From a virus: a DNA stretch of 64,000 bases. Every line of letters starts with the position of its first letter. Position 1 is the stretch's first letter. Both the position numbers and the translations under genes were made by a program. Under the pieces are notes generated by a model. That model was not told where the DNA came from. It saw only the letters and a list, made by a program, of their open reading frames with translations, and did not search any database. Shown here one piece after another: positions 7,650 to 53,478 of this stretch. The stretch is taken from IMG/VR virus record IMGVR_UViG_3300002835_000050, positions 1 to 64,000 of that record; one strand, written 5' to 3'.

Positions 7650-7659
7650 ATTATACAAT

Positions 7660-8436: not shown

Positions 8437-8442
8437 ATTAAC

Positions 8443-10872: not shown

Positions 10873-10888
10873 TATTAATAGAAAAAGT

Positions 10889-12382: not shown

Positions 12383-13329
12383 TGGGACTTTTAAATACAT
12401 GTGCAAAATGTGGATGTGAAGATAATTTCTTAACAACACCACCTCCATGCCCAACAGCAATAGCATGTCCTACAGAAGAATGTTCTGCAGTACAGTATGC
12501 AAAATGTATAGCTTATACGGGCAGTGATATAGAATGTAATAATGATATAGTAGTACCTACTGATACAAATATGGCTGCTGCTATTAATAACATTGTAGAT
12601 TACTTTTGTACCGTTACTACAGTGCCAACTGCAATTTTATGCGATACAGATGTAGTTGTAGCTGCAAATACAGTTATTGTTGAAGCTTTAGCCGATACAA
12701 TTTCTTATTTCTGTAGTGCAACAACAGTACCTGCAATTCTTGATTGTAATTCAGCTACTGTAGTAGCAGCTAATACACCTGTAGTAACTGCATTAGGAAA
12801 CATTGTAGATTATTTTTGTAGTGTAACTACAACTAGTGCTAACATAACATGTGGTACAGATGTAGTAGTAGTTTCAGGAACTCCTGTGTTAGGTGCTTTA
12901 GTTTCAATGACTAATTATTTTTGTACTGAAATTGCTAACTTACCAACAGTATCTATACTTGGTGATAATGGAATTTTAGTTACCCCAGTTGTTGTAGGTA
13001 CTAATACTGAATATACAATAAGTGCAAATGGACTTAAGAAGTTTGTAAAAGAATTTACAGGTATAGAATTTGATGGTCAAGTAATAACTATACTGGGTAC
13101 AGAACTTACAGCATGTGACTTATTATCATCAGCTTGTGGTGTTAGCACAACTAAAGCATCAGATTTTACATTTAACATTATGTATCTTTTTGCAGGAAAT
13201 TGGATTAGTCTTACAAATCAAGCAGGAGTTGTCGTACAAGCAAATGATACCACAGGAAATATTTCAATTACTTTAGGTATACCAGCCGTTGATCCACCAG
13301 TTACTGTAAGAGTAACTATTATTGGATAA
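12382..13329 (+). CDS. Putative fibre protein with four ~35-aa C..VV..T..A...YFC repeats
   Basis: Repeats visible in the translation; shares motifs with the upstream fibre gene. Confidence 0.55.
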   Translation: MGLLNTCAKCGCEDNFLTTPPPCPTAIACPTEECSAVQYAKCIAYTGSDIECNNDIVVPTDTNMAAAINNIVDYFCTVTTVPTAILCDTDVVVAANTVIVEALADTISYFCSATTVPAILDCNSATVVAANTPVVTALGNIVDYFCSVTTTSANITCGTDVVVVSGTPVLGALVSMTNYFCTEIANLPTVSILGDNGILVTPVVVGTNTEYTISANGLKKFVKEFTGIEFDGQVITILGTELTACDLLSSACGVSTTKASDFTFNIMYLFAGNWISLTNQAGVVVQANDTTGNISITLGIPAVDPPVTVRVTIIG

Positions 13330-28315: not shown

Positions 28316-31249
28316 ATGGCTACGTATTTACAAGGTGTCACAGATTATATTCCGCAATTTCAGCCTTTTCAGCCTGACTTAAATTTCTTTGGAAATGTAA
28401 TGCAGACTAAGCAAACTCAGTATGACACAAACTGGAAAGCTTTAAATAAAATGTATGGTCAGTACTATCATGCTGATTTAACAAAGGACAGTAATATTGC
28501 AAAGAAAGATAATTACTTAAAACAAATTGAGTTTAACTTACAAAGAGTTTCTCAATTAGATTTATCATTGGAACAAAATGTAGACCAAGCTACTCAGATC
28601 TTTAAACCTTTTTATGAGGATAAAGGACTGATGAAAGATATGGCTTATACTAAAAACAATATGAATCAAGTTAGTTATGGGCAATCTTTAAAAAATGCTT
28701 ACAACCAAGTAGAAAGAGACAGATATTGGAATGAAGGTATTTTGGAATTACAATATAAAAGACAAGAGTTTAAAGAGTCAACTGATGAAGAAGCTATGTC
28801 ATTTGAAGATACTGACTATACTTCTAATGTAGATGTTATTGGTAAGGCTCAGGAAACTGCTAAGGCTGCAGGTTTATCTATTGAAACTGTTGAGTTTAGT
28901 AAAGACGGTAAATTTATTGTAAAAAATAAAAATGGTGAACAGCTTATTGAACCTTTACAAAAGTTATTTGAAGCTAAATTAGGTAGTGATCCAAGTGTAC
29001 AAGCTAAGTATAAGACATTAGCATATGTAGATAGAAAAAATTATGCAGAGTATAATGCTGCTCAATTCAAAGGTGATAAGAATGCAGCTGAAATGGAATA
29101 TCTTGAGACTAATTTCAATAGACTTAAAGCTCAAAATATAGCAAGATTCAATGCACTTAAAGCTACATCTGCATCTTATGATGCTAAAATGCAAAATATC
29201 AAAAATCAAATTGATAAAGGTCAAGCTTCTCCTGATGCTAAATTAGCCTATGATCAGTATAAGATGAATAAAGATATTAATGATGAAGTACTTGCTAGAG
29301 CTGAACAAGAACAAAAAGAGTTGAGCTCAGGACAAAATGCAGCTTCATCTACTGGCTTTATTAATCCCTATGGTGACATTAAATCTTTAAGATACAAAGT
29401 TGATAATGCAATGGCTTCTTCATTAATGCAAAAAGATTTAGATGAGGCCGCCAACATCTTTGCATTTAAAGATGCTAAACAAGATATTGATGCTAATCCA
29501 TATGCTGTTCTTGCAGAAAAACATAAATATAGCATGTCAGAAATTGCTGCTAGAAATGCTGGTTTAGAAAGAGCAGCAGCATTACGTAATGCAGGAGAAA
29601 GAAAGAACAAACTTGATGAGTATGGTTTAAAGATTGGTACACATTACCGTGATGAAAAAACAGGAGAAGTAAGACCGGTTTCTGCATTAAATGAAATTTA
29701 TACTGAGTTTAATGATAAAGGTATTAGTACTGATAAGTATAATATGAAAACAGCTAGTGATCATATTAATAATATACAATCAGAAAATGTTGCAAAACCT
29801 TTCTTAAAAAATACTTTGACTTTAATGCAAGATCTTGTAAATAAAGGTCAAATGACTCAAGAAGAAGCAAGTAAAATTTTAAGTTATGGAAAAAATCCAA
29901 AAATTTCTATAAATAAGTTTAATGATAAACTTGATAAATATGGTGCTCAGTGGTTACGTACTGAAGTGGGACCTGATGATTTAAAAAATATTCAAAAAAG
30001 AATGGATACTTGGATAAGTCAAAATGGTGAATTGTCCGGACTATCTGGAGAAGATTATAAAAGTTATCAAACGTCAGCTCTTAAGTTTGATGACTATGCT
30101 AATTATTTAAAAGCAGATATTAAATGGAGAAAAGAAAGTTCTAAAGTTGTTGTTCAAGATTTGTATAGACAAGGTTACAAAAATGCTGAGTTTTTATATG
30201 ATGAAAAAGGAAACAAAAGAAGTGAAAAAGAATTTACTGCAGCTTTAATAAAAGCTAATAAAATTAAAAAAAGTGACAAGTATAGTCAACCAGATAAAAT
30301 AAATTTTGCTCCTTTAATGTCATCACAGGCGGTTAATGAAAAAGCTCCAACTAAAGCACAAGTAGATTACAATGAATTAGTAAATGCGGCTGCTGGTGTT
30401 TATTCATCTGGTAAAGTTAAAGCTCCAGAAGGTTTTGGTAGACTTGGTAAAATGACAGGTAGTGGATTATCAACAGGTAATGTAATACCTGGTGCAAATA
30501 CTACATGGGTAAATCCAAAAGCACATGGTACTAAAAGTACTGTATGGGCTGCTGAAAACTTTAGAACTTTAGCTAATATAGATTGGTCAGATGATACAAA
30601 AAATAGAGGTTCTCTTACAGGTATTAATAAAGAAAGTTGGAACAATCATGATGCAGAAACAAATGCAAAAGTAAAATCTGTATTTGACTTAATAAAAGCT
30701 GAGCTTACAAAACCTAATACTAAGATGGCAAACTTTAGAATGACTGTGTCACCTATTGCTGCAGGTTCATTAAGTAAATCAGCTATTACTGTTTATCCTG
30801 ATGCTGCGTGGTTAAAAACTTATGTTAAATCTGGTGAAAAAAATACAGGACCCGGAGTTCTTACTACTCAAGATTATAACAATGCTATAAAAAATGGATT
30901 CTCTTATATAGTAGACTCAAAAACTTTAGCAACTAATTCAATGTATATGGCTGCATTTCAATCTCCTTTAGAAGCTCATATTAAAGCTAATAAAAAATAT
31001 GAATATGTAGATCCAAGAAACCCTAATTATAAACTTTCTATAGCTCCAAATAAATTAGGAACTAGTGACTACACAGTTATTATGGGCTACCCTCTTTATA
31101 ACCCTAACTTAGGTAAATATGAATACAGAAGTGAAAGCTTTAGTACTTCAACATTAGGAGGTAATTTAGAAACAGCTAGAGAAATGGGTGTAAGCGCGCT
31201 TGATAGTATGTGGTTGTCAAATAAAAATTTAAATAATGGCAGATATTAA
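28316..31249 (+). CDS. Internal cargo/ejection protein
   Basis: 977 aa, helical, no Cys seen; directly upstream of the vRNAP gene trio. Confidence 0.55.
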   Translation: MATYLQGVTDYIPQFQPFQPDLNFFGNVMQTKQTQYDTNWKALNKMYGQYYHADLTKDSNIAKKDNYLKQIEFNLQRVSQLDLSLEQNVDQATQIFKPFYEDKGLMKDMAYTKNNMNQVSYGQSLKNAYNQVERDRYWNEGILELQYKRQEFKESTDEEAMSFEDTDYTSNVDVIGKAQETAKAAGLSIETVEFSKDGKFIVKNKNGEQLIEPLQKLFEAKLGSDPSVQAKYKTLAYVDRKNYAEYNAAQFKGDKNAAEMEYLETNFNRLKAQNIARFNALKATSASYDAKMQNIKNQIDKGQASPDAKLAYDQYKMNKDINDEVLARAEQEQKELSSGQNAASSTGFINPYGDIKSLRYKVDNAMASSLMQKDLDEAANIFAFKDAKQDIDANPYAVLAEKHKYSMSEIAARNAGLERAAALRNAGERKNKLDEYGLKIGTHYRDEKTGEVRPVSALNEIYTEFNDKGISTDKYNMKTASDHINNIQSENVAKPFLKNTLTLMQDLVNKGQMTQEEASKILSYGKNPKISINKFNDKLDKYGAQWLRTEVGPDDLKNIQKRMDTWISQNGELSGLSGEDYKSYQTSALKFDDYANYLKADIKWRKESSKVVVQDLYRQGYKNAEFLYDEKGNKRSEKEFTAALIKANKIKKSDKYSQPDKINFAPLMSSQAVNEKAPTKAQVDYNELVNAAAGVYSSGKVKAPEGFGRLGKMTGSGLSTGNVIPGANTTWVNPKAHGTKSTVWAAENFRTLANIDWSDDTKNRGSLTGINKESWNNHDAETNAKVKSVFDLIKAELTKPNTKMANFRMTVSPIAAGSLSKSAITVYPDAAWLKTYVKSGEKNTGPGVLTTQDYNNAIKNGFSYIVDSKTLATNSMYMAAFQSPLEAHIKANKKYEYVDPRNPNYKLSIAPNKLGTSDYTVIMGYPLYNPNLGKYEYRSESFSTSTLGGNLETAREMGVSALDSMWLSNKNLNNGRY

Positions 31250-34200: not shown

Positions 34201-36815
34201 TTGAAGAACAATTTAATTTAGTTATTGATAATACTTTATTAAATCATTTAGCTGATAGAGGTATTTATATTAGTCTTGATGATTTCCAAGATTGGAGATT
34301 AACAGGAACACCTCCTTCTGAGTTTTTTGATAATGCTAGAAAAATGGTTATTCCAGAAGGTACAGAGTTATATGATGAGTACTATAAGGAATTTGAAAAA
34401 GCTGCTTCATTAAAAAGTCAAGATTCTAGTCTTGTACCAGAATCATTAAATGAAGAACTTAAAAAAGATTTAGAGCAAGCAGATTTAGATATGGAAGCTG
34501 AATTAGATTCTATACCTAAAAAAGAAGTTAAGAATGTAATTAAAAATCTTAAACCTGATAGCGGTAAAACTTTAAGCTTAACTAAAATTAATACTGAACT
34601 TAATCCAAATGAATATGCCGAAGCTGAATATGGTGGAGACAATCCATTTGTTATTTTTAAGGATGAAGATGGTAATTTAAGATTAGAGAACATTGAGGGT
34701 GAGATTATAAAAGATACATCTAAAGTAGCAATTAACTTTAGTGAAGTAACTATCTATACTTTAGTTGAAAGAGCTGATCCAGAATTAGCTAAACCAGTTG
34801 TAGAAAAGTATGAAGCCTATAAAAATAAAATTAGAGATGAGTACGCTACTAAGATAGATAATCTTACTAAAGCTGAGGAAGCTCCAATTAATGATTTTGT
34901 ACCTATTGTTTCAGAAGTAAGCAGTGTTTTTAAATATCCTGCTTTATACAATACTCTATATACTAGCTTTACTGATAAAGTAATTAGTAAATTAGATCCT
35001 GCAGATTTAGATTCATTAACTGAAGAACAAGAATTAAACTTATTTAATAAATTCTTACAAACAGATAAAGAAGCTAAAACTGAAATAGAAAACTTTAATA
35101 AAAAACAAGTTACAGAAACTGAAGTAAAAGCTTCTCCTGAAAGATCTGATTTTGAATATATTTATCAAGGTAAGAAAAAAAACACAGCAGACTTAAAAAC
35201 AATAGCTGATTTAAGAAAAGCACAAAGAAGATTTAAGGCTTTAGTTGATGATATTACCAGTATGGAAAATCCAAACACTGAGGATATTACAAATAAAAGT
35301 AAATACAGTGTTATTGTTAAAGAATTTGATAAATTAATTCAAGCTAGATCTAAACAAAATTTAACTCCTGAATTAAGAACTGCTTTAGATAAAATAAACA
35401 AACTTAAAGAAGCACAAAGTGAAATACAAGTAGCTGATGCGGGTATGCTTATTGATGATGAAGAATATCAAAATGTTGAAACTGCATTAGGTCTTAAGAA
35501 AAATAAGGAGCCTTATAAGGTTTATATTGATGCTCAAATTAAAAACTTATTTGAGGGAATTACTCCACCAGTATTTGATACTAATGCTATATCTCAAGAA
35601 GCTTTTGATAACTTATTTGGTCCAAAAGGATACATCACTTCTATAAAGAATAGAGTAGATAATGGAGAATTATCTGTTATTGCTCAGGATCTTGCAGTAT
35701 ATGATTCAAATACTAAATTAGCAACTAATATTGATTTGTTATTAGCTGATACTCAAGGTAACTTACTTATTGTAAATACAATAAATGATTCAAAAAGTAA
35801 TTGGGATGTATTTACTAAAAAGGATAATCCAAATTCTAAGTTAAAAGATGTTAAGTTACTAGCAGTAGCTAAGGCTAATCTTTTAAATAATATGATTGGT
35901 GTAGATGCTAAAACATTAGTATTACCAATTGAGATGAGTGTAAGTACAGCTAATGATAAAATCATGATAGCTAATAAACCTACCTCACCTTCATTAACTG
36001 CTGTTGATGCTCTTATTACATTAGATAAAAAAGATGTCCAAGATCAGGTGAATAGTATTATTCCAATAGCTAAAAAAGAGACAGTTGAAACAAAAGTTGA
36101 AACTGAAAACATTAGCGTAGTTCCTGCTGATGCTGAATCAAGTGATGATACTCAATCTCCAGCTGTTGAGGCAGGAGAGCAAGAAAGAGAAACTAGATTT
36201 ATAGATGACAGTGTAAGATATGGAGCAAAAGAGTTTAAAGAAAGTTTAGCTAAAGCTGATATTACCACCTTTAATGCTGTTATGGCAGAGCTTAATCTTA
36301 AAATTCAAGAAGGTGTTGTAGATGTAAATGATCTTGAGACAATGTCAGAATTAGCAAAAGAAAGATTAGAACAATTAAAACAACCACAAAATGTAAAAAT
36401 TGTACCTGAATCTTTAACTGCAGATAAACAATTTGTTGCAAAAAGCATTATCTTTACAGAGCCCGGTAATCAAAAAAGTGAAATATTTGCTGAAGAAGAT
36501 GATACAGTAGTTATTAACTCTGTTAATACTAAAAATAAAACTGTATCTGTTTCAGCATTAGGTAGTTCAAAACAAATGACTATTGGTTTTAATGATATAA
36601 ATAAACTCTTTACATTAAAAGATTCAATAATGGATGCTACAGAAACACAAGATATGAGCCTATCTACAGAAGATAAAATTAAAATTAATGAGTCAATTGA
36701 CTTAGCTGATGGGTTTATAACAAATCCTGATAAACTTGGAAAAGTGGAAGGTGAGTCTTCTAGTAAATCACTAGAAGAATTAGATAATGAATTATTGAAT
36801 GACATAGATTGTTAA
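31236..36815 (+). CDS. Giant ejected virion protein (first of the vRNAP trio), with a degenerate PD-(D/E)XK-like domain
   Basis: 1859 aa; Gly/Ala-rich amphipathic N-terminal third; synteny with the vRNAP. Confidence 0.6.
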   Translation: MADINNAGFNPLDSLGPEYGRINRPILDNKGLAPFEGDKLEMPKINFPITPYSDVLESPQRNVREQVVGNPPNKPGASKEKFDFDSYKKGISNKLKAGFESLQDNSTYAKVYSYDAGPDSNAFYKRYAAYGADTFDKIGFSPLRDNEALFNSHTTWWDDHKRMMTNSFWPLFGRGFVAGPKSLGRMLTGDFTGTDIEDARAYKEAAAIGQSSKKGFGAFANNTMMNFGYSAGIMSEAILEEIGGVLLAPETLGGSFFAATANASKNVLKATKGLDVAEDGYKAVNSTLNAIDNVSQARTFWQNANKLGTSAFSPVGSTIKGFQAAKAADNLNNLGKAFKTFGGFYRDVQRINMALSEARLEGGMVKNEVYDKLYNQYYTKNNRPPSDAEQYEMIKQSEKASLNTVLWNTALIYGSNAITFPNIMGSKGGIRSFMKNSLQEFATVKGGKFGDLGKIVYDKGLKKVVFEKNNLKNLAKSWLKQPIYKSTMGTIGYFKANFAEGIQENLQEVISGANERYYVDSFKSPALRSHNYSKAVAKYNEASQTAYFGDELGKQFTATGFETFASGFAMGALATPVNAVFNNLSVGYNRIFDNKAYQEIKDKKEKIVNSLAEQLNSIDVNEFLNARPFNYATQDVVASIKQYGDKKQANDAHLDAFMSQMETMIQTGTVDVFKDRLMDLTQLSPEEFEEAIPTVPKGEGAAYQNKIPDIIKKAKKIEERYKYYNEKFPNPVTYNEMPPKDSPEYEDAAILHNAWNKGIENAIYFNEAFEDTMNRKKSIMETYLSQAPLKGMSQRDSEVIFDIKKLRNEQTILKDEISILKELNDPASQSELQLKERKLEALTKLGDKTATLSNFFNRYERAEEVRKQLQIEKGGEPVTDEEVEKTLDEVFGEYSEENKIKTFSEHEAAYKDYLKALANVNGEYLFDQNIDETYELLGHHFKLDSESRNLMKYVNLLHDPNGFIESVQRNRVWMKDLYKRRSDIYKQMVEEQFNLVIDNTLLNHLADRGIYISLDDFQDWRLTGTPPSEFFDNARKMVIPEGTELYDEYYKEFEKAASLKSQDSSLVPESLNEELKKDLEQADLDMEAELDSIPKKEVKNVIKNLKPDSGKTLSLTKINTELNPNEYAEAEYGGDNPFVIFKDEDGNLRLENIEGEIIKDTSKVAINFSEVTIYTLVERADPELAKPVVEKYEAYKNKIRDEYATKIDNLTKAEEAPINDFVPIVSEVSSVFKYPALYNTLYTSFTDKVISKLDPADLDSLTEEQELNLFNKFLQTDKEAKTEIENFNKKQVTETEVKASPERSDFEYIYQGKKKNTADLKTIADLRKAQRRFKALVDDITSMENPNTEDITNKSKYSVIVKEFDKLIQARSKQNLTPELRTALDKINKLKEAQSEIQVADAGMLIDDEEYQNVETALGLKKNKEPYKVYIDAQIKNLFEGITPPVFDTNAISQEAFDNLFGPKGYITSIKNRVDNGELSVIAQDLAVYDSNTKLATNIDLLLADTQGNLLIVNTINDSKSNWDVFTKKDNPNSKLKDVKLLAVAKANLLNNMIGVDAKTLVLPIEMSVSTANDKIMIANKPTSPSLTAVDALITLDKKDVQDQVNSIIPIAKKETVETKVETENISVVPADAESSDDTQSPAVEAGEQERETRFIDDSVRYGAKEFKESLAKADITTFNAVMAELNLKIQEGVVDVNDLETMSELAKERLEQLKQPQNVKIVPESLTADKQFVAKSIIFTEPGNQKSEIFAEEDDTVVINSVNTKNKTVSVSALGSSKQMTIGFNDINKLFTLKDSIMDATETQDMSLSTEDKIKINESIDLADGFITNPDKLGKVEGESSSKSLEELDNELLNDIDC

Positions 36816-36819
36816 TATT

Positions 36820-42800: not shown

Positions 42801-45800
42801 AACTTCTGCAGTTAATAAAGATGGTGATCCTGTAGCTGATGAAATATATGTTGGTGATCAGAAAAAATTAAAAGCTGATATAACTTTTACTCCTAATACA
42901 ATTTACTTAGAGTATCTTAAAAATGTAACTAATGTACCTAATGCATATAAAAATAAGACTGTATTCTCAACTCAGTTAAGAAAACTTATCTTAAAAGATA
43001 TGTATAAGGATAAAAAAATCATTAATGATGCTAATGAATCTGCAGTTAAAAGATATGAAAAAGCTGTAGACTCTTATAGCCAGTTATTGAAAATGGAGTT
43101 ACTACAAGAAGTTGATTATGAATATGATATAGAAACTGGTACTTATAAAGGAAACATCAGTAAGTTTTTAGAAGTAGTAGAAAGAGAATTAGGTAGAAGA
43201 AATATACCTGAGCACTTAATTGAATTTATAGGTTTAAATAGAGATACTACAATTAAAACAGATTTATCTTTACACTTAGTAGCAGATCAAATTGAAGCTA
43301 TCATTACAGGTTTAATTGAAAAAAGATTAATCAAACAAAAAGTTAAAGGTGAGGCTCTAGTACAAGTTGCTAGTTCAATGTCAAATGGGCTTTGGGATAC
43401 TAAACTTAAAAAAGGTACTAAAGAAGAGATTATGAAGTACTTAGGTACTAATAACTTACCTTTTTATAATAAAGATGCAAACACAGGTAAAACAAATGCA
43501 ATGAAAGTTGCTATTGCTTTACAAGGTGATTTCTCTAACTTGCTTAAACTTAATGCTTTAGATGGTCAACCGATTGCTACAAGAGCAAGATTAAATGATA
43601 TGATTAAAGAAGATGCATGGTTAGATATAGCTGATAACAGAAAGTCAGTTACTTTAGCTGCTGTACGTATTCCAGTACAAGGATTAAACTCTATGGAATT
43701 TATGGAAGTTTATGAATTCTTAGATCCATCTGCTGGAAATATTATCATTCCTCCAACTGAGATTGTTGCTAAATCAGGAGCTGATTTTGACGTTGATAAA
43801 TTGACTACATTCATGCCTGCAATTGATTCTTATGGAAATTTTGTAAAAACAGGATTAAGTAATGATGAATTGTCAATGAAGTTAGATGGTGTTGAAAATG
43901 AAAATGTAGGTAAAGGCTTAATTAAAAATCAAAAAGCTGCATTAGAAAATGAACTTATCATGGCTATTTCTGGTATCTTAGAATTATCTGATAATTATGC
44001 ATCACTGGTAAGACCAAATGATACATACTTAATGAAAGATGATATTGCTGATGAATTAGAAAAGTATGTTACTAGTTATGATAGATTCAGTAACTTCAAT
44101 AGAAAAACTCCAGGTTTCAGTCCAACAAAAACTCTTGAGGTAGGTTATAACTTACATAACCATGAGGTAAACATGATTGGTAAAAGAGTATTAGGTATGT
44201 TAGCAATAGAAAATTCATTACATCCAGTTATGAATTCAATTGGTTTATCATTACCTAAAACATATAAAAACTTAGAGTTTGACCAAGATTTAAACAGAAA
44301 TAAAGAAGGGACTACTGATTTTGAAATGAGATTATTTTTACCTCATAACAAAACAGAAGATGGTAGAATTTCTTTATCAGGTGTAGATACTGTTGATGGA
44401 CTTGACAACATAGGTGAAATGTTTTCACAAATGATGAATGGTGCTGTGGATGTTGAAAAAAATCCATGGATATTCTTTATACAAGGGAATTATGAAATGA
44501 TTCCAATGATTACTTTTTTATTAAAAGCCGGAGTCCCAAGAAAACAAGCTATATATTTTGTTTCTAATCCAATTGTAAGAGAGTATGCTAAAGAACAACG
44601 TAAACTTAAAAGTGCTTATGCTAAAATTACAGGAACTGTAGAAGAAAATTTTGGTAAAAGTTTTGTTAAATATACAGCTGCAACAAATGCTCTTACTAAA
44701 TTTGGAGTTTCTCAAGCAGGTAAAAAAATAACTAATAAAACATATTTTAAATCTGTTAATGATGCTGTAGCTAAACAAGGAGTATTAAATGATGAAGGTT
44801 TATTTGATGAGACTTCAATGAGAATGCTTATAGAAAATCCCGAAGCTCCTGAATATAAAGATCAAGCAATAGCAATGTTCTTACACTTTTTAGAATTAGA
44901 AAAATCTACAAGAGGTTACAATGCATTAAAGTTTGTAGCTAATCCAGATACTAAGACATCTAAAACTTTACAAGAGATTATAAGAAGAAATGTAGCTTTT
45001 GATGAAGCTGCTGCATTATCTACTTTAGAGAAAGGTTCTGTAAATGAATTATTAAACTCTGTATTAGGTTCTTTCTATAATAATAAAATCATAGGAGATT
45101 TAGTAGCCCCGGTGTTTAAATTAAGAAACAATGATGTAGTTACTGATTATATCTTAGATAGACTTAAAAATAATTCTTCTAGTATAACAAAAGCATTTGG
45201 TACAGATCAAGATGGTACAAGAAAGTTTATTACTTCTTTTAAAAATGCTATTCCTAATTATATCTTCCAAAATTACATGTCTAATTTTATAGATGAGTCA
45301 GGAGAAATAACTAGTATGCCTAAATACTATAAAGGAATTGAAGTTATTAATAAAGCTGGTGCTAAAGAGGGTGCTGAAATAATTGATAATAAACTTTATA
45401 TTGATAAGGCAAGATTAGAAAAAGAATATGCTGAAGAGTTATATGCTGCTTCTAATACAAATCCTGGTAACTATAATAGTGAAGGCTTAAGAGGTTTTGG
45501 TAATACTATAAACTTATTCAATACAGAATCAGCTTATTTTAAATATGTATTTGAAAGAGCTATTCAAAAAGATTTATACAGTCCAGAATCAGTTAAAGAA
45601 GATAAAGACTATTTAAGATTTAATGAGTTTCTTAAAGATGATAAACAAGCTTACTTAGCTTATATTAATCAAAGAGCACTTGTGTATGCATTTAATAGAA
45701 AGATTATTACAGGAATGGATAATGATTCTTATACTAACATGCTATTAAACATGATAAATGATTATCCTATTTTAGCAAGTAAATATAATATCATATCTCA

Positions 45801-47631
45801 ATTTACTAAACCTAATGTTAAAGAAAGTGTACTTTCATTAAATGATGTTAGTTCATTAAAAGATGGAGATACTGCTGAAATCTATTATCAAAATCTAAAA
45901 GACTTGGCGGATGAGACTGTTAAGAAAGTTTCTGATCCTATAGAAAATAGAAAGATAAGCAAGATGTTTGAAATGTTGCCATTAATTGCAATATATCAAC
46001 ATGGTATTGGTTATAGTAAAAATGGATTTAATGAAGCATTACCTTATGATAATTTCATAGAAGTTATGCAAACAGCTTCTGAAATTTTTATGAATAAGCA
46101 ATTAAATGAAGCAACATTAAATACTATATTTGATAAACTACTTGCTCAGAACTTTAAAACTTTTAAAGATTATACATCATCTCCGGAGGCATACAATAAA
46201 CCTACTACACCAACACCAGTAGATATTATGTCTCAAGAAGAAGCAGCGGCTATGTTAGAAGGAAAAGGTCTTAAAGTTACTGAAGAAGTTTCTACTACTC
46301 AACCTTCTACTAGTGTTAAAGAAGGTGTGTCAGTATTATTTGAATCTAACCCAGAATTAGCTAATGTTGGAACACCTCAGCAATACTCACAATATCTTGA
46401 TGGTATATTTCCGGATAGTAAAGTTAAAGATATTGTTTATCACTGGTCTGCAGGTTCACAAATATCTGAACAATTTGGAGATGACTTAGGTAGGGTAAAA
46501 GGTATTTGGATAAGTAAAGATCCTAATCAATGGAAAGACATTATTAAAAATAAAAGTAAAAGGCTAGGTATAAATCAAATTAAAAAACATGTTTTAATAA
46601 TAAATGCAAATAATATTTGGGTTGACTCAACCCTATCTAGTCCTGAAGGAAGTAATTTTCCTAAAGGTTATGATACCATAGCAGCATATGAAGAAGCTGA
46701 TTTAGCTTATTCTGGAGATTTAAAACCAGAATTTAAAAATATAGAAGGTTTTGAAGCAGTTATAAAATTAAAAAATCAAACTTATGAATTAGGTACTAAA
46801 CAAGATATAGAAGGATTTAAAAACTTTGTAGCTAATTCTATTCAACCAAGTCAAATTAGTACACAAGGTATTGTTAATAGACCAGATGTAAACTTGAGAG
46901 AAAAATACTTTAAAAACTCAGAAGTTAAAAAATTGTCTGAAGTATTAGGAGCTATTAGTAAATCTAATCATCCTCTAAGTACATTAGCTAAACACTTAAA
47001 TCAGTTTTCTAATATAAATAATGCTGACATAGCTTTAGAAGATGTTGATAATTTTGAAGTAACTGATGGTTTTACTAGTAATGCATACTATGATATCTAT
47101 TCCAATAGAGTTAGAATAGCAGAGTTTGCTAATGTAAACAATGGTAGTGCAGAAACATTATTGTTACATGAAATCTTACATGCATTATCATATAAAGCTT
47201 TAAGAAAAGGTGGTAACTATAATAAAGATTTCCAAAAGTTATATGAACATAGTATTCAACAATTAGGAGCTTTTGATGTATCTGCAAAAACAGGACCTTA
47301 TGCTAATTATACAATTGATGAATTTTTTGTAGCTTTGTTTACAGATGCTAAGTTCATTAAACAACTTTCAGAACTAGCACCTATTGATGTTAAAAAGTAT
47401 AGCAACTTATTACAAGAGATTGTTGACCACATCTTAAATTTACTTAAAATAAATAAAGGAGATTCAGTTTATGATCAAGCTTTTGCAGTAGCTACTAACA
47501 TACTTCAAGAAGAAAGTGACTATGTAAACGCTATGAATATGGCAGCACAAGAGCAAGATAATATAAATTTTGAAATAAATGCTCCTGAAGGTTTGCCTGG
47601 AATACCAAGAACATCAACAGATTGTCAATAA
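36820..47631 (+). CDS. Virion RNA polymerase (crAss-like single-chain two-barrel type), polyvalent, with two zincin motifs and an ART-like insert
   Basis: GADFDVDK catalytic loop (43777-43800) preceded by RIPVQGLNSM; DGQGY; HEAWH at 39283 and HEILH at 47167. Confidence 0.85.
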   Translation: MKITCALSQSQIEKLYANVYGYMLNKGNDFEPKQYMIDLFDKLAKKKDVETAAKFLQQVPSLIGTASFRPGLEQFEISTDILKPLINQFKRDENGLVNVVKYFNPVLDPEVKKELVEKKANDAFDIIEVDTNRIITQDFDFKPYSALSTTMQQFITQNPKDKTNASETLDPSRKVIYNTLDAIRSVVNDNTAFKEVVYQGKVLKLKPVRLNEINPVLLDKTTNALLNKAGAINAGKKGVESVTPINEIFLMVLSDSKGELLYFTEDGNITTQDKGGRLVYQFLRDARKDGNNIMITDMYGYQNSILDPATIANKAGVPVEVIEEQQNKEFKELYDYRQKLINNEKVDLLDIVSVSNGIAEYAPDKLNLSNISTILNDNDAAIRSIDTVNSPRSGFIEGQAVITIKGVEYAVDRPNISLDLINKIATVLTNKDITNKKKYRFVSTFLADKASPSTRKHNITYLPNSDVLLFEYSETTFDEGYSKMKSVNLDSPTAKNDIVKALQFASGKNGKYYTAKMTISNEALDKGYQDYNLNTNTLDDNYSNYIDLLKTLDNTNISVDLNPAGRTFNSYLRFALPNEFTEQLANAQKNTDEIVKDDLFETLSEPEDEKPVFGVKATREKLINALEKNETVSGTISFVTGSKWLLTTPEGQVVEFFNKENNITNEDVISTATLNLIPEITLDNKPFTNVIEVKVGNKFIGYVRETEDFSKPVKQKSIEEIEAEINQVIDGKGEATPEDDGAASVFFLRKGSLPADVTEKQIKDAKKWWTNSPLNKHIGFKEVANIVNSDAYARFTKYGAVLNGNLGIIELADKGSMVDVYHEAWHGFSQLYLSKAEKKALYKEVQKKMGSKADFFDIEENLAEAFREYVRTGKALKGAPKTNSIFKKILNFLRELFGKGSVTDVTDIKRVNELFNELYLGTELNKYTPSIANVMFNTLNRSLGIIKPGTADEQVLNRQDSNKLKDSMDSIISDIVDNEAKRSNKKSGTLSILLDSRNREPLYILIKQQLNNKLELSKTQLQDTPNNLENALKREILENRIRILQTGLDNYGDTKEGLIGYHVENSTYDLMKQKYTVLELDEEGNLFDPANIKNTERYGDKEEGQKSLIELAGKETLYILKSLHKGKINKDTNLIEFTYDDLGFKQLADFRSTWNTVVRTIGGVQDPQEMYDRLANEGETDSQLRQLVQTKLANPKLVTEDIAKNNQYEFKATTSIWQDFSKSKIPYIQLTIRKTETGEKEVYDYNGNPIPNKSYKTYDYSSAVTDASIEAYNIIRKFEDKFKSNLDNPYVERLGIDNIPTLNIQQVVKDFGVNGKLNTEKSFAFARALGFALDDLSIIKGVLNKKDNKTIEQFGLSYIFDVVKKLSDKENLENVSSATKKAILNFRTNPINTLMNDIPAGVIGNSKVNQKNKVLEIAKLQSRYGLDTSNNMVLNAERNRVSEFIENNSISKQVSALNNASKLSDLWTSDKYQHMAYLDPRINAYTKRLGIIRSLYDMSSAEQLKRSNKSLTLFMDSGTQIADEDGGLNTANLDIASKRLQEMNTMLKSGVQEFLRHASKSSAFGVKIDSGIIGSPDKSGFDNYLWVDSDMFVDGTAYDYAFLTHFLPYIEGEAERIYKFRKNKTEYSKYAGYNRKVEGGFMAGEIFTAFDDIIEDDTKKLIYKAIDAAIANNESFDLRTYIRTQNNPLATTLRNQVRSYFDNQSKVNYNNLQELKFIDPELIDKMKSLNTPEDQIEKKLVEVYTYNSWIQNFETAVLFYGDIAQYNHAKQELHKRNTGSTSGGRAFRTDVAARNFVNSFLSETSYAKKYNKPTINYNGTYNTAIVQDIKRTSEYLGEIEKGLTDEYTKRYATSKDPNKEAEIKRRVAIEIAKYVDMEEGDGQGYISFDAYRNLKYLENSWSNDQEILFQKIKNGEEVKASDIKEFFPVYKLQNYGPLANKEIGLPITAMHKFALFPLIPNVIAGSDLESLHLQMIDKNIQYVTFQTGSKVGSVTSAVNKDGDPVADEIYVGDQKKLKADITFTPNTIYLEYLKNVTNVPNAYKNKTVFSTQLRKLILKDMYKDKKIINDANESAVKRYEKAVDSYSQLLKMELLQEVDYEYDIETGTYKGNISKFLEVVERELGRRNIPEHLIEFIGLNRDTTIKTDLSLHLVADQIEAIITGLIEKRLIKQKVKGEALVQVASSMSNGLWDTKLKKGTKEEIMKYLGTNNLPFYNKDANTGKTNAMKVAIALQGDFSNLLKLNALDGQPIATRARLNDMIKEDAWLDIADNRKSVTLAAVRIPVQGLNSMEFMEVYEFLDPSAGNIIIPPTEIVAKSGADFDVDKLTTFMPAIDSYGNFVKTGLSNDELSMKLDGVENENVGKGLIKNQKAALENELIMAISGILELSDNYASLVRPNDTYLMKDDIADELEKYVTSYDRFSNFNRKTPGFSPTKTLEVGYNLHNHEVNMIGKRVLGMLAIENSLHPVMNSIGLSLPKTYKNLEFDQDLNRNKEGTTDFEMRLFLPHNKTEDGRISLSGVDTVDGLDNIGEMFSQMMNGAVDVEKNPWIFFIQGNYEMIPMITFLLKAGVPRKQAIYFVSNPIVREYAKEQRKLKSAYAKITGTVEENFGKSFVKYTAATNALTKFGVSQAGKKITNKTYFKSVNDAVAKQGVLNDEGLFDETSMRMLIENPEAPEYKDQAIAMFLHFLELEKSTRGYNALKFVANPDTKTSKTLQEIIRRNVAFDEAAALSTLEKGSVNELLNSVLGSFYNNKIIGDLVAPVFKLRNNDVVTDYILDRLKNNSSSITKAFGTDQDGTRKFITSFKNAIPNYIFQNYMSNFIDESGEITSMPKYYKGIEVINKAGAKEGAEIIDNKLYIDKARLEKEYAEELYAASNTNPGNYNSEGLRGFGNTINLFNTESAYFKYVFERAIQKDLYSPESVKEDKDYLRFNEFLKDDKQAYLAYINQRALVYAFNRKIITGMDNDSYTNMLLNMINDYPILASKYNIISQFTKPNVKESVLSLNDVSSLKDGDTAEIYYQNLKDLADETVKKVSDPIENRKISKMFEMLPLIAIYQHGIGYSKNGFNEALPYDNFIEVMQTASEIFMNKQLNEATLNTIFDKLLAQNFKTFKDYTSSPEAYNKPTTPTPVDIMSQEEAAAMLEGKGLKVTEEVSTTQPSTSVKEGVSVLFESNPELANVGTPQQYSQYLDGIFPDSKVKDIVYHWSAGSQISEQFGDDLGRVKGIWISKDPNQWKDIIKNKSKRLGINQIKKHVLIINANNIWVDSTLSSPEGSNFPKGYDTIAAYEEADLAYSGDLKPEFKNIEGFEAVIKLKNQTYELGTKQDIEGFKNFVANSIQPSQISTQGIVNRPDVNLREKYFKNSEVKKLSEVLGAISKSNHPLSTLAKHLNQFSNINNADIALEDVDNFEVTDGFTSNAYYDIYSNRVRIAEFANVNNGSAETLLLHEILHALSYKALRKGGNYNKDFQKLYEHSIQQLGAFDVSAKTGPYANYTIDEFFVALFTDAKFIKQLSELAPIDVKKYSNLLQEIVDHILNLLKINKGDSVYDQAFAVATNILQEESDYVNAMNMAAQEQDNINFEINAPEGLPGIPRTSTDCQ

Positions 47632-47632
47632 A

Positions 47633-47646
47633 AATTAGTATATTTA
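47633..47646 (+). promoter_or_regulatory. Putative late promoter core (AATTAGTATATTTA)
   Basis: Same TTAGTATATT core as at 10861 and 13430; no TTTG at the expected distance. Confidence 0.4.
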
Positions 47647-47667
47647 AGTATAATTATAATTAGTATT

Positions 47668-50600
47668 ATGCCTTGTGTAAATAAAATAACTCAGTTCATT
47701 AACGAACTTATATTTAATGAAGCTAGCCCAGCAATGAATATGTCATTAGCTAATGCTAAAACTCTCATTAAAAATGTTAATAGGAAGTATGGATATGAAG
47801 CAGCTAGACTTATCATTGGTGATACTCTAGATGTTACAACATATGCTAGTAAAGATTTGATTGATAAGTTTTATGCTAATGAGCTTGCTTTAGAAATGGC
47901 TGAAGCAAGTAAGACTGAAAATGAAGCTAGATCTGCTGAAATAAATAATATTGATTCAGAAGAAGACTTTATTAAAAGACAGTTTGAACAAGCTAGAGAT
48001 TATGAAATTGCTTCAAAACTAGGAGATAAATATCAAAAAGCATTTGGTATTGACTATAGTATAGTTACACCTGCAGAAGCAGCTTTAATACTAGAGCTTA
48101 CACCTACACCATATGATCCATCTGTATCTGCATTCTTTTATGCTAATAGAGTTTATTTTATTGAAGGTAATTTTAAGTCTAATACAGTAGTTCATGAGTT
48201 TGCTCACCCATTAATTAAAGCAATTGCTTTTCAAAATCCTAAGTTATTTGATAGTTTATATGCTAGATTAACAGGTACTGTGACAGGAAGAGAAGCATTG
48301 AATAGAGTTAATGAAAGGTATCCTGAATTAGAAGAAGGTTCTGATAGATACAGAGAAGAAGCTTTAGTGACTGCAATTGAACTAGATGCTGAAATAAAAT
48401 TATCAGGTATCAAAACTTCAGATACTGCTTTTGATAAGTTTATGGAAAATCTTTTGTTTGCAATTAAAAAAGTTATTCAAGCTCTTACAAAGAAAGTAAC
48501 CTTAAAAAATTTAAGTAGTCAGACAACAAGAGATCAGTTGGTAGACATGATGCTTAATGAAGACTTTGTTATTCAAGATATAAATTATCAAACAAATATG
48601 TTTGCTGAGTTTAGTAAAGATACAGATCAGTTCTTAAAAGAACTTAAAGCTGTTGAACCTAAACAAATCATTAATATCATTAACAAGTTTCATACTGAAA
48701 TGTCTTTCCAGTTAAATGAGTTAAGAAATTCTCCTAAGAAATTTAAAGAAAGCTTAGGTAAAGATGCTGCAGCAAATATTAGATTGATCAGAGATTATGT
48801 TAAAGGATATAAAACTGTAGATGAAGATATAACAGATGATGAATTAAAAGATTTGCTTGATTCATTAGTAGTAGATGAGGCAGATTTAAATGTAAGATCT
48901 TTAGCATTCATTAATAGTTTATCTGAGTTAATGTTGTTTGCAAGAAAAATTGAAAAAATATTTAATGATATCAAAGCATCCAAAGAATACTTAACAGAAG
49001 AAGGTAATCAAAAAATCCAATACTTTAAACAGTATATGGAAAGAGAGTCTAAGTTCTTAAAAGATGTATTGAATGAGTTAGATATGGACTCTTCTAATAA
49101 ATTAAGTAAAGAGATTCTATCTATTAAAGAACTTATGGATAGAAATATAGATAAAGCAAAAGTATTATCTTTTAATTATGTTAAAGACTTTATTCTTGCT
49201 AATGGTATTTCTATGCAAGAAAATGTAAAGAAAGATTTATCTGATAAAATTGATCTTATACTTAAAGCAGATGGGTTTACTGAAGATGAGATAAATGTAT
49301 TTAAGGATGATCTATTTCAAAAATTAGATGTAGATAACATTAGAGCTATTTCTGAATCTGATTTTAATTTACCAAGAAAACCAACCAAGTTTGCTAAAAA
49401 TATAATCAATGAGATTAAACAATACAATAACAATAAAATTACAGAGCAAACAGTAGATGAATATCTAAGAGGGCATGTAAGAGATCTTAGTTTAGCAGGT
49501 GCTACATTTACACCAACAGGAAATATTAATGACTTGTTTGGTACATTTGTTAAAGCAATGAAAAATAAAATTTCAGATGCTGAGGTTCTTAGTCAACAAG
49601 AACAAATGAAGTTTGTAGAGAACTTAAAACCTTTATTAACTGCTGTTAACTGGAATCCTAATAATACAAATCAACTTGCAGACATGTTATTGTTTGAAGA
49701 TGAGAAAGGTATTATTGATGAACAAGGTAATGTTACTTCATATCAAGCTTATAGTTATATTGATAAATTTAAGAATTGGGAATTTGCTCAAGCTCAATTA
49801 ATGGGTAATCTCAAAAAAGCTAAACTGAAAGGTGATAAAGCAGAAATTAAAGCTGCTATGCAAGCAATGAGAGATTTTGAAAGAGATTATAAAATAAGAA
49901 GATTTACTGATGAAGTATATGAAGTACAGGATATATGGTTACAATCTAATACAGTATATGATCCTACAACTAAGAAAAATATTACCATTTCTGCAGATAT
50001 ATCTTTAGAAGCATTTAATGAAAGAAAAGCTGCACTAGATGATCTTGCTACTTATAGTAATTCTTCTGAGTTTACTTCATTAGATGACTTACTTGAGTTT
50101 ACACCTTCAGCAGAGGCAAAAGTAAAGTATAATAACTTATATAATTTGTATGATGCAGATGGTAATTATAAACAAGGAGTTGAATTACAAAAAGTATTAG
50201 TTAGAAGATTTTATAGACAAGAGTCAAGAAAGTTTTATGAATCTAATCCTGATACAAAGAAGTTTCAAAATGATTTTGATCACTTTGTAAACAGTGAGTT
50301 AGCAAGTTTAGGTATTACTAAAGATGATAATCCTGAAAGATATGAAGCTGAGATTAAAAAATTCTTAGCTAAGAATACAAGAGTGGCTTATACTGATGAG
50401 TACTATCAAGAAAAAACTGAGACTTTAGCAGAAATTAATGCTATTAATGAAAAAGCTAAAGGTGCAGAAATATCTAAAAAACTAGCTAGCTTATATGAGC
50501 AAAGATACAGTATTACAAATAGAGTAACTGACAAAGACGGTGAACCTAATGGTGCTGAACTTGGTAATGAATCTCTTAATAGATTAAAAGATATTGAAGA

Positions 50601-53478
50601 AGAGATTATAAAATACAATGCTGAGTTTGATAGAGCTACAGGTTTATCTAAAGATGAAGCTAAAAAATTAAGATATTATGAAGATGAGATAATTGCTTTA
50701 GGAAAAGCTTCAGAAATGACTGATGCTCAAAAAGCTGAATATCAATCATTTATAAGTAATAAAACTGCATTTGGTTTATCTGAACAACAAATTGTTTATT
50801 TAAGAAGTAGATTTAAAAAATTAGCTGAATTAACATATACAGAACCTACTGATTACTATATTACTACATTTAATGCAATGTTAGGTGACACTGATATAGA
50901 ACTTATAACTAAAGAAACTGCAGATAGTTGGGTAAATTCAGAAAACCTTAGAGTTGCAAAAGAAGCAAATCCAAAGTTTGCAGAATGGTTTGATAGAAAT
51001 CATGTTGAGAAAGAAGTATTTAATGAAGGTAAAGCTGTTTATGAAACAGCTAACATTAGAACTAAAGCATGGACAGTATCTAAACCAACTAATCCAAGTC
51101 ATTATAAAAAAACAACATTAACTGATCCTAGTACAGGTTTAGAAATAGCAGTTGATGGTATTCCTATTGGGAAATATTCATATTCAACAATTAAAAATGA
51201 ATATAAGACAGGATATGATCCAAAAACTGGTAAAGTTAAATTAGAAGTAGGTAAGCATATTGATAACCGTGGTAACTTTTTACCAAAGGAACAACCATTA
51301 GGAGGCCCATTCAGTAAATATATGAATGAGAAGTACTATGAGATGAAGAAAGCTAACTCTGCTGAATTTAAATTATTAGAAGCTATTAAAAAACAAAGAT
51401 TAATTAACCAAGAAAAGTCTCCATATGCATCAAGATTATATCTTGATTATGCAAGATTTAGAATTAATACTAACCTTGAATATGGTCAATCTGGTAAATT
51501 AGCAAGTGATGCAAAAGATAAAGTTGGTGCAGTAAGTGATGCTTTAAAAGCTTCTGTTACTAGAGCAGCTGATGATGTTGAAATTGGACAAGCTAATTTT
51601 GATCCTAAGTTTTTATATGTACCAACAGATTTACAAGGTAAGGCTTTACCAAAAGTTCCAGTAGCTGGTTTATATAAAATGAATCTTAATTCTGTTTCTA
51701 AAGATGTAATTACTTCAGAGTTAAATTATATGAACTCTTTAGATCTTCAAAAAGTATTGCTTGATACACAATCAACAGCTAATGCAGTAGTTGATGTATT
51801 AGGAGATCCTGATAATGCATTAGATAGATTAGATAGAGTAAGTAGTAAATTATCTAGAGCTCAAGACAAAGCTGCAGTATTCTTAAAAAGAGATACTAAT
51901 AATAAGTTACAATTTGCTAAAGATTTTATTGCCCGTACATGGTATGGTGAAAATGTTAGTGAGTACCAACAAGAAAACCCTATTATTTCTAAGTTAGTTA
52001 GAAAATCTATGGGTGCTGCTAGTTTTGCTTTCTATAATTTAAATCCAACATCTACTATTAAGAATAAGGGTGGGATGACCTTTCAAAAATTAATTTTTAC
52101 TGCTGGAGGCAAACACATTAGTTTTGCGTCAATGGCAAGAGGACAAATTAAAGCTACTAAAGCTGTATTTGAATATGCTACATCTGGTAATTATACAACA
52201 GGTATTAAAAGTTTAGATATGCAGTTAATGGATGCATTTGATATGTCTCCAGGTAAAACTAAAAAGGATGCTAAAAAATCTCATACTAATACAGCAATTA
52301 AACAATTACTTGATGGAGCATGGATGTATTCAGATAGAAAATTAACTGAGGTACAAGGAGCTCTAGAAATAGGATTCAGTTTAATGGATTGGCAAATGGT
52401 AGACCAAGTTCAACCAGACGGTACTGTTAAACAAATAAGATATGTTGATGCATTTGAAACAGGTGATGATGGTATTGCTAAATTAAAAGATGGTATCAAT
52501 CCTGAGTGGGGAATGAACTATATTGATCATGTTGTAGAAACTGGTGAGACTCTAGAGTCTATTGCTAAAAAATACAATATGACTGTAGAAGAGTTAAAAT
52601 TAAAAAATAAAATTACTAAAGCAGATACTGTTGAAGAAGGTAAATCTTTAATCATTTCTAGAAACACTAAGTTTAATATGATGAAACTTAGAATGGCTAG
52701 TGCTAACAAAAAACTTAATGGTAGTATGTCAGCAATAGATTCTCCAACAGCAGAAAAAAATCTATGGTATGATGTTGTATCATTCTCTAGAAAGTTTGCT
52801 ACAGGTATGTTCTTATCAAGATTTCAAATGGATACATCTAAAGGAAACTTTGGAGGTAAAGTATGGGATTGGGATTTAGATGAAGCTACTAGAGGTTCTT
52901 ATATTACTTTCTTACAAAATGGTTATCAGTTAACAAAAAGTGTTGGTAAGTATTGGTCAGTAATGACTAAAGATGAAAAAGCTGCTTTTTATAAAATCAT
53001 GATGGAAGGAATGCTATTGACTTTATCTACTATAGCAATTACAATGTTATTTGGTTTTGAAGGAGATGATGAAGACAGGTTTAAAAAGTTAAAAGAAAGA
53101 GAAGAGAAATATGGTAATGTAGGTTGGTTAGCTAATCATATGCTTTATCAAATCATCATGGTACAAAAAGAAAATAGTACAATGATACCTCTTCCTGGAT
53201 TAGGAGCTGCAGACTGGTTAGATTTTAGTAGTACTAGTAGTATTGTTATGGGTCCAACATTAGAGTTGTATCAAAAAATATTTATGGATTTAGCTTATAT
53301 AGTAACAGGTAATGATAAAGCTATTTATAAACAAGAAGTAGGACCTTACTCATGGCAAGAAGAAGGTAATTACAAATTGTGGAATCATTTAGCAAGTATA
53401 TTTGGAGTATCTGGTAAAAACTACAGTCCAATATGGGCAATTAAGAAAAATGAAGTTTTCACAAATCTTAGAAGTTAA
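47668..53478 (+). CDS. Giant ejected virion protein (third of the vRNAP trio) with zincin motif and LysM domain
   Basis: HEFAH (48193-48207) with downstream EEALV; LysM HVVETGETLESIAKKYNMTVEELKLKN (52528-52656); hydrophobic segment at 53008-53058. Confidence 0.7.
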   Translation: MPCVNKITQFINELIFNEASPAMNMSLANAKTLIKNVNRKYGYEAARLIIGDTLDVTTYASKDLIDKFYANELALEMAEASKTENEARSAEINNIDSEEDFIKRQFEQARDYEIASKLGDKYQKAFGIDYSIVTPAEAALILELTPTPYDPSVSAFFYANRVYFIEGNFKSNTVVHEFAHPLIKAIAFQNPKLFDSLYARLTGTVTGREALNRVNERYPELEEGSDRYREEALVTAIELDAEIKLSGIKTSDTAFDKFMENLLFAIKKVIQALTKKVTLKNLSSQTTRDQLVDMMLNEDFVIQDINYQTNMFAEFSKDTDQFLKELKAVEPKQIINIINKFHTEMSFQLNELRNSPKKFKESLGKDAAANIRLIRDYVKGYKTVDEDITDDELKDLLDSLVVDEADLNVRSLAFINSLSELMLFARKIEKIFNDIKASKEYLTEEGNQKIQYFKQYMERESKFLKDVLNELDMDSSNKLSKEILSIKELMDRNIDKAKVLSFNYVKDFILANGISMQENVKKDLSDKIDLILKADGFTEDEINVFKDDLFQKLDVDNIRAISESDFNLPRKPTKFAKNIINEIKQYNNNKITEQTVDEYLRGHVRDLSLAGATFTPTGNINDLFGTFVKAMKNKISDAEVLSQQEQMKFVENLKPLLTAVNWNPNNTNQLADMLLFEDEKGIIDEQGNVTSYQAYSYIDKFKNWEFAQAQLMGNLKKAKLKGDKAEIKAAMQAMRDFERDYKIRRFTDEVYEVQDIWLQSNTVYDPTTKKNITISADISLEAFNERKAALDDLATYSNSSEFTSLDDLLEFTPSAEAKVKYNNLYNLYDADGNYKQGVELQKVLVRRFYRQESRKFYESNPDTKKFQNDFDHFVNSELASLGITKDDNPERYEAEIKKFLAKNTRVAYTDEYYQEKTETLAEINAINEKAKGAEISKKLASLYEQRYSITNRVTDKDGEPNGAELGNESLNRLKDIEEEIIKYNAEFDRATGLSKDEAKKLRYYEDEIIALGKASEMTDAQKAEYQSFISNKTAFGLSEQQIVYLRSRFKKLAELTYTEPTDYYITTFNAMLGDTDIELITKETADSWVNSENLRVAKEANPKFAEWFDRNHVEKEVFNEGKAVYETANIRTKAWTVSKPTNPSHYKKTTLTDPSTGLEIAVDGIPIGKYSYSTIKNEYKTGYDPKTGKVKLEVGKHIDNRGNFLPKEQPLGGPFSKYMNEKYYEMKKANSAEFKLLEAIKKQRLINQEKSPYASRLYLDYARFRINTNLEYGQSGKLASDAKDKVGAVSDALKASVTRAADDVEIGQANFDPKFLYVPTDLQGKALPKVPVAGLYKMNLNSVSKDVITSELNYMNSLDLQKVLLDTQSTANAVVDVLGDPDNALDRLDRVSSKLSRAQDKAAVFLKRDTNNKLQFAKDFIARTWYGENVSEYQQENPIISKLVRKSMGAASFAFYNLNPTSTIKNKGGMTFQKLIFTAGGKHISFASMARGQIKATKAVFEYATSGNYTTGIKSLDMQLMDAFDMSPGKTKKDAKKSHTNTAIKQLLDGAWMYSDRKLTEVQGALEIGFSLMDWQMVDQVQPDGTVKQIRYVDAFETGDDGIAKLKDGINPEWGMNYIDHVVETGETLESIAKKYNMTVEELKLKNKITKADTVEEGKSLIISRNTKFNMMKLRMASANKKLNGSMSAIDSPTAEKNLWYDVVSFSRKFATGMFLSRFQMDTSKGNFGGKVWDWDLDEATRGSYITFLQNGYQLTKSVGKYWSVMTKDEKAAFYKIMMEGMLLTLSTIAITMLFGFEGDDEDRFKKLKEREEKYGNVGWLANHMLYQIIMVQKENSTMIPLPGLGAADWLDFSSTSSIVMGPTLELYQKIFMDLAYIVTGNDKAIYKQEVGPYSWQEEGNYKLWNHLASIFGVSGKNYSPIWAIKKNEVFTNLRS

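Follow-up and report, generated by a model that had tools for sequence, protein, structure and literature searches.

We describe three neighboring giant genes, here termed A, B and C, whose predicted cargo proteins are almost wholly devoid of cysteine except at the ends that face each other across the gene junctions. They were identified in a 64,000-nucleotide stretch of viral DNA (the window; positions 1 to 64,000 of the IMG/VR virus record IMGVR_UViG_3300002835_000050), which derives from a divergent crass-like phage. The rule that places these cysteines holds in relatives ranging from sea water to the human gut, follows the gene splits, and lapses at junctions where the genes are fused. From these sequence patterns we propose that the facing cysteines probably serve as an end-to-end, disulfide-based tether of the crass-like cargo proteins. 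Whereas the paucity of cysteine in ejected phage proteins is known already, both the terminal-cysteine rule and the proposed tether are undescribed in the papers searched. No viruses of the human gut are more abundant than the crassviruses, and it is still to be explained how several megadaltons of their protein reach the host ahead of the DNA.

The cargo block and its four cysteines

By homology, A, B and C make up the cargo block around the RNA polymerase in a divergent crass-like phage, as is indicated by the relationships of B and its DFDVD motif, the upstream gene for a muzzle protein, and the domains found in A and C. A tblastn search with B matched 76 crass-like phage records (e.g. phi14:2 g066, e-value 2e-14; cr108_1, 3e-24), and BLASTP aligned residues 1391-2598 of B with residues 486-1666 of phi14:2 g066. 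The DFDVD motif, which is the catalytic signature of the crass-like virion RNA polymerases, aligns with DFDID at position 1361 of phi14:2 g066 and with DFDVD at position 1483 of crAss001 gp50; its three aspartates (D2322, D2324 and D2326) are invariant across 44 homologues. The phi14:2 and crAss001 counterparts of A, B and C have been detected in virions by mass spectrometry (PMC10172136), which for crAss001 included both reduced and non-reduced virion samples, and by analogy with these cultured relatives A, B and C of this uncultured phage would likewise be packaged and ejected. The original prediction had further taken it as established that such proteins must be ejected unfolded; this is in fact only a published proposal for crAss001 (PMC10172136).

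Together the three proteins contain just four cysteines in 7398 residues, all of them within five residues of the junction-facing ends (Table 1). A recount reproduced exactly the open reading frames (ORFs) and the four cysteine positions that had been read by eye from the translations, with the codons at the same coordinates; it also allayed the concern that internal cysteines had been missed in A, B or C, as there are no others, and confirmed that the 977-residue protein encoded directly upstream of A has none. The 26 other window ORFs of at least 150 amino acids (aa) have 218 cysteines in 12,377 residues (1.76%), a frequency at which about 130 would be expected in A, B and C. If four cysteines were placed at random, the probability that every one landed no more than five residues from one of the four facing ends would be ~5e-11.

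Multiple alignments show that C1859 of A is invariant among 37 homologues and that both Cys 5 of B (44 homologues) and Cys 3 of C (37 homologues) are, along with the residues around them, invariant or nearly so, which supports the start codons assigned to B and C. The tail of A is acidic in the clade of this phage, with a nearly invariant aspartate three residues ahead of the cysteine. B and C share a reading frame in the window, where positions 47629-47670 hold a single TAA and 12 sense codons with no further stop. Readthrough of this TAA was considered and rejected: B and C are in frame in only ~40% of related loci, and the shared frame thus looks like chance.

Conservation of the terminal cysteines

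We assembled 223 homologues from the clade of this phage (625,440 residues), comprising 44 of A, 59 of C and the best 120 of B. As many as 329 of their 337 cysteines lie at junction-facing ends, the other 8 being internal and the outer ends having none. In 43 of 44 A homologues (29-100% identity) a single cysteine forms the last residue. Similarly, 58 of 59 C homologues (27-100% identity) have a cysteine in the first eight residues (57 of them at positions 3-5), which is the sole cysteine in 54. Among the best 120 B homologues (42-100% identity), 104 display one cysteine at positions 3-6, one at 0-4 residues from the end and none between, those departing from this arrangement being mostly truncated ORFs. 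At the DNA level, the rule is obeyed by every IMG/VR locus that has a complete A (78) and by all 53 loci in which both sides of the B/C junction are visible, down to 27% identity and with intergenic gaps ranging from overlaps to 32 nucleotides. On long contigs there are two apparent exceptions, namely P0036, an A homologue in which the tail cysteine is missing, and P0170, a B homologue that lacks the C-terminal one; they may represent either frameshifts or real departures.

To the clade we added 15 named genomes of the Steigviridae, Suoliviridae and Intestiviridae, including the cultured phi14:2, crAss001 and Rudgehvirus, so that the order-level sample consists of three families recognized by the International Committee on Taxonomy of Viruses and the clade of this phage. 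Both junctions are split in phi14:2, crAss001, cr128_1, cr85_1 and cr106_1; A and B are fused and B/C split in cr108_1, cr118_1, cr50_1, cr1_1, cr10_1 and the TAG-recoded cr113_1; and A/B is split with B and C fused in cr107_1, Rudgehvirus jaberico, cr8_1 and cr271_1. At the 20 split junctions all 40 facing ends have a cysteine within 10 residues of the end, as against none of the 29 visible outer ends (Fisher 4e-20). Counted end by end, the pattern reads 0-1 / 1-1 / 1-0 along both phi14:2 g067/g066/g065 and crAss001 gp47/gp50/gp49, as it does along A, B and C. The stub beyond the terminal cysteine measures 0-4 residues in this phage and up to 10 in other crassviruses. In crAss001, cr128_1, cr85_1 and cr106_1 gene A lies on the strand opposite B and C and the cysteine pattern is unchanged; hence, the rule is no by-product of adjacent genes or of neighboring stop and start codons. 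In these sequences the cysteines follow the gene split, independently of gene order and domain position.

In cr107_1 (5901-8279) and Rudgehvirus (6217-8490) a first cargo protein encoded upstream of A also has a single cysteine, 7-10 residues from its C-terminus; the N-terminus of the protein that follows it lacks a partner cysteine in both genomes. This additional cysteine in the two Intestiviridae could provide another link or serve as an anchor.

Gene fusions and a displaced boundary

Ten natural fusions (six of A with B and four of B with C) are available, and in all ten the fused junction lacks the cysteine pair while the pair at the remaining split junction is kept. In eight of the ten there is no cysteine at all in the junction zone; in the A-B fusion of cr108_1 the zone contains C1534, which is inside a zincin domain. 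The original prediction had anticipated terminal pairs retained at the junctions of separate genes and missing from fused ones, and this is what is seen across the 223 homologues, ~130 loci and 15 genomes. Consequently, the proposed pairing of the A C-terminus with the B N-terminus, and of the B C-terminus with the C N-terminus, is well supported by conservation and by paired loss on fusion. A single site or metal knot formed by all four cysteines was rejected, as the two pairs are lost independently. Judging from this distribution, the functional unit that is gained and lost is the cysteine pair, and neither the single cysteine nor a four-cysteine cluster.

The A/B boundary itself appears to have moved. 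Profile comparison with hhalign matched B 796-974 to residues 2134-2322 of the 2341-residue crAss001 gp47 (probability 93.7%, e-value 2e-7), a region corresponding to a zincin-like domain. In crAss001 this domain is at the extreme end of A, stopping 19 residues short of the gp47 C-terminus, and the gene boundary comes after it; in this phage the boundary lies ~800 residues before it. A PD-(D/E)XK-like domain remains in A in both phages (hhalign of A 1420-1571 against gp47 1694-1870, 97% probability). As hidden Markov models (HMMs) built from B 1-1300 and B 680-1150 recovered no match in the reference phages, the claim of a moved boundary rests on hhalign and four concordant BLAST hits. With this lesser firmness, we suggest that the boundary shifted relative to the zincin domain and that the cysteine pair followed it. 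A pair that tracks a non-homologous boundary suggests repeated gene fission, with each event sealed by a new cysteine pair. The C-terminal zincin-like segment of B (3250-3603), which is present in 23 homologues and matches only protein C of cr1_1, was set aside as a sign of a moved B/C boundary and treated as a shuffled accessory domain.

The polymerase gene of cr108_1 is also interrupted by ~290 nucleotides without an ORF (22764-23053), which separate the part that matches g066 as far as residue 1361 from the part that matches it from residue ~1466 onward. The 798-aa piece after this gap still has the penultimate cysteine. The ORF-less stretch could represent an intron or an error in the assembly.

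A predicted end-to-end tether of the cargo proteins

We favor, as moderately probable, the reading that A, B and C are joined head to tail by pairwise links between the facing ends, most likely disulfides that arise in the virion. Selection would strip cysteine from the cargo proteins, as in other ejected phage proteins, and would keep a single one at each chain end that is created by a gene split. After packaging into the virion, the C-terminus of A would then be linked to the N-terminus of B, and likewise the C-terminus of B to the N-terminus of C, most probably by a disulfide. The three products would thereby make up a single thread with hardly any branching (its side stubs would not exceed 4 residues in this phage), equivalent to the single polyprotein of other crassviruses. 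Such a thread would hold A, B and C in one piece, with each protein drawing its successor into the tail channel, until the reducing cytoplasm of the host separates them. The chemistry of the link, the timing of its formation, the threading and the release are inferences from the sequence patterns. A disulfide is the simplest chemistry given that there is one thiol per chain end and that all other thiols have been removed. A link between chains that have to remain almost linear on passing the portal and tail would call for cysteines at the very termini, which is also where the two pieces of a newly split protein are adjacent from the outset. The pair logic, this terminal position, the Cys-poor nature of ejected proteins and the occurrence of disulfides in virions together favor the A-B-C thread; on the last point, purified crAss001 virions contain disulfides in the gp57 dimer, the tail hubs and the ring proteins (PMC10172136). 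In its most general form the proposal amounts to a polyprotein assembled after translation, in which every split, wherever it falls, would be re-joined as a disulfide by a cysteine pair at the new ends, giving a thread of 5,000-7,400 residues, uniformly N-to-C in polarity, that leaves the capsid whole and is divided into working enzymes by the reducing cytoplasm of the host. We place this generalization a little short of an even chance; if true, protein injection would proceed through a redox-gated relay, which has been described for no phage.

The same pairing could be served by a bridging metal ion or by non-covalent docking of the facing ends. Like the disulfide, such a contact accounts for the pair logic and the loss on fusion; it needs no oxidant, which suits cytoplasmic assembly and anoxic habitats, and the acidic A tail of the clade with its near-invariant aspartate would be in keeping with it. 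However, two thiolates alone make a poor stable site, and no extra ligand (His, Cys or Asp) is conserved beside the cysteine across the families, the tails being as varied as ...DIDC, ...NTIC, ...LRCNS, ...FVCS, ...YTCS and ...ITCK. Moreover, retaining one cysteine per end and removing the others points to the need for a specific disulfide, secure from scrambling, rather than to a metal site, and we regard this explanation as unlikely. Somewhat less likely still is that the terminal cysteines bond elsewhere, either with other copies of the same protein (A-A, B-B, C-C) or with anchors in the portal, capsid or tail. It is true that which thiol meets which cannot be told from sequence alone, and that crAss001 has disulfide-rich tail and portal-vertex proteins (PMC10172136); but such partners leave unexplained the joint loss of both facing cysteines on fusion, the bare outer ends (0/29) and the lack of cysteine in the remaining Cys-free cargo proteins. 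That there is no tether, and that the cysteines are a side effect of gene boundaries (start or stop context, or a relic of fission) or are simply tolerated in floppy tails, is very improbable. In keeping with this explanation, TGT accounts for almost every one of the codons, which lie beside stops and starts in AT-rich DNA; yet the cysteine is invariant down to 22-29% identity while its flanks change, both TGT and TGC are in use, and the rule is kept with A and B on opposite strands and with all the gap lengths observed. The outer tails, which are equally free, never carry a cysteine, and the window alone gives the minute chance value quoted above.

Several points weigh against the tether that we favor. 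The fusion junctions were placed by BLAST against split relatives and are extrapolated, with an accuracy of 100-200 residues, and two Obtuvirinae fusions each show one cysteine on the margin of the zone, close to where the B part is extrapolated to end. Internal cysteines are tolerated in some lineages (C1334 of crAss001 gp50, and 15 cysteines in the Obtuvirinae B-C fusions), and the exclusion of cysteine is therefore strong and not absolute. The particles are assembled in the reducing environment of the cytoplasm, and the gut lumen in which crassviruses occur is anoxic, neither being a setting that would favor oxidation. Finally, the cargo is unresolved in the crAss001 maps (PMC10172136). Complex prediction for B 1-300 with A 1620-1859, based on the window sequences only, gave ipSAE values of 0.08-0.10, which speak neither for nor against a contact.

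The rule yields a directly testable model, namely a covalent and reducible thread of cargo proteins, and names the exact residues for study in the cultured phi14:2, crAss001 and Rudgehvirus. It also furnishes a marker for annotation: Cys-tipped ends show which giant ORFs form one cargo chain, along with their true starts and order of joining, even where sequence similarity has faded. If the tether is confirmed, the precept that ejected proteins have no cysteine would become one of none except where a link is needed.

Relation to known systems

The triads of phi14:2 (g067-g066-g065) and crAss001 (gp47-gp50-gp49) resemble A-B-C in having the DFDxD motif in the middle protein and in the location of the block downstream of the muzzle and Cys-free cargo genes. 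They differ in that their polymerase core is only 21-24% identical and that B, with 3603 aa in this phage, has 2180-2412 aa there. The fused A-B forms of the Suoliviridae and B-C forms of the Intestiviridae have the same domains in the same order in one chain, and are thus what a tether would imitate; in contrast to the separately made parts of this phage, they are covalent by translation and lack the cysteine pair at the fused junction. Such fusions were noted in a preprint by Drobysheva, which assumes that they are cleaved into parts (10.1101/2020.03.07.982082).

N4-type phages (Schitoviridae) are comparable in that their giant ejected proteins are nearly devoid of cysteine: their single-gene virion RNA polymerase has none at all, and the lack of cysteine in N4-type proteins has been explained by the exit from the particle and the passage through the envelope (PMC11445570). 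Unlike the block described here, the N4-type protein is encoded by one gene of ~3500 aa, belongs to an unrelated polymerase family, has no terminal cysteines and forms no multi-gene chain. Hence, the complete absence of cysteine of the Schitoviridae type does not extend to A, B and C, which retain four conserved cysteines and have only the internal suppression in common with it. An analogy is offered by two-chain toxins, in which a single inter-chain disulfide holds the parts to each other on their way through a narrow channel and is reduced in the cytosol; these are, however, unrelated proteins, and their chains are cleaved from one precursor and are not joined end to end. The structural disulfides of crAss001 show that cysteines of particle proteins are oxidized in purified virions (PMC10172136), although they brace fixed parts of the particle whereas the proposed bonds would link mobile cargo. 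Full-text literature searches found no paper that mentions the terminal cysteines of these cargo proteins; they go unmentioned in the crAss001 atlas (PMC10172136), whose supplement has nothing on gp47, gp49 or gp50, and in the phi14:2 polymerase preprint.

Domains of the cargo proteins and neighboring genes

Searches of A and B against PHROGs and Pfam matched no family, and phmmer with B alone against the PDB sequences found no match. The block contains three HExxH motifs, starting at B 822, B 3450 and C 176, of which the first and third are invariant; that at B 3450 lies within the segment present in only 23 homologues. The sequences thus indicate that the cargo has at least two conserved zincin-like domains. 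The B homologues (P0106, P0109, P0114, P0116, P0146 and others) vary in their accessory enzyme domains, which include PF08719 (YbiA-like), PF13532 (2OG-Fe(II) oxygenase), PF18760 (ART-PolyVal), PF25176, PF13671 and PF09397, all of them kept without cysteine. These look like a changeable set of injected enzymes carried along by the polymerase protein. An antisense ORF inside B (39282-39857, minus strand; 191 aa, TTG start) is unsupported and most likely spurious.

Table 1. Features of the cargo block and of the neighboring virion genes, with positions in the window
Feature	Position	Strand	Remarks
561-aa protein	5900-7585		19 Cys
180-aa protein	7660-8202		9 Cys
803-aa protein	8443-10854		61 Cys (7.6%)
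497-aa protein	10889-12382		17 Cys
315-aa protein	12382-13329		17 Cys
Crassvirus muzzle protein homologue	15795..21266	+	1823 aa, 21 Cys; PF25731 crAss_MUZ, e-value 1.8e-24, above the curated cut-off
Phage-lysozyme-domain protein	21266..22357	+	363 aa, no Cys; PF00959, e-value 4.1e-5
1215-aa protein	22415-26062		no family
726-aa protein	26072-28252		no family
977-aa protein directly upstream of A	28316..31249	+	no Cys
Protein A, first link of the predicted chain	31236..36815	+	1859 aa; sole Cys is the last residue
PD-(D/E)XK-like domain, A 1420-1571	35493-35948	+	hhalign against crAss001 gp47
Cys 1859 of A, TGT	36810..36812	+	C-terminal residue; conserved tail motif ELDxELLxDhxC
Protein B, predicted middle link, virion RNA polymerase homologue	36820..47631	+	3603 aa; Cys 5 and Cys 3602 only
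Cys 5 of B (MKITC), TGT	36832..36834	+	invariant in alignment
HEAWH, B 822-826, zincin-like motif	39283..39297	+	invariant
DFDVD, B 2322-2326	43783..43797	+	catalytic motif of crass-like virion RNA polymerases
HExxH, B 3450	47167-47181		in segment B 3250-3603
Cys 3602 of B (...STDCQ), TGT	47623..47625	+	penultimate residue; invariant in alignment
Protein C, predicted last link	47668..53478	+	1936 aa; sole Cys is residue 3
Cys 3 of C (MPC), TGT	47674..47676	+	invariant in alignment
HEFAH, C 176-180, zincin motif	48193-48207	+	H176, E177 and H180 invariant
LysM domain, C 1621-1663	52528-52656	+	PF01476, e-value 3.9e-8

The muzzle homologue identifies the region upstream of the cargo block as the virion module (Table 1). 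The lysozyme-domain protein is a candidate for a further ejected protein outside the cysteine chain. The 977-aa protein, which family searches left without a match, is cargo-like by position (compare crAss001 gp45/gp46) and likewise stands outside the chain. The Cys-rich virion genes further upstream (5900-13329) match no family; their products are probably disulfide-braced outer tail or fibre proteins and present a sharp contrast to the Cys-free inner cargo. Of the two family-less proteins encoded between the lysozyme-like and 977-aa proteins, which may be either cargo or fixed parts of the particle, the 1215-aa one has only two cysteines, in a CxxC at residues 1122 and 1125, and the 726-aa one has six, all within residues 382-459.

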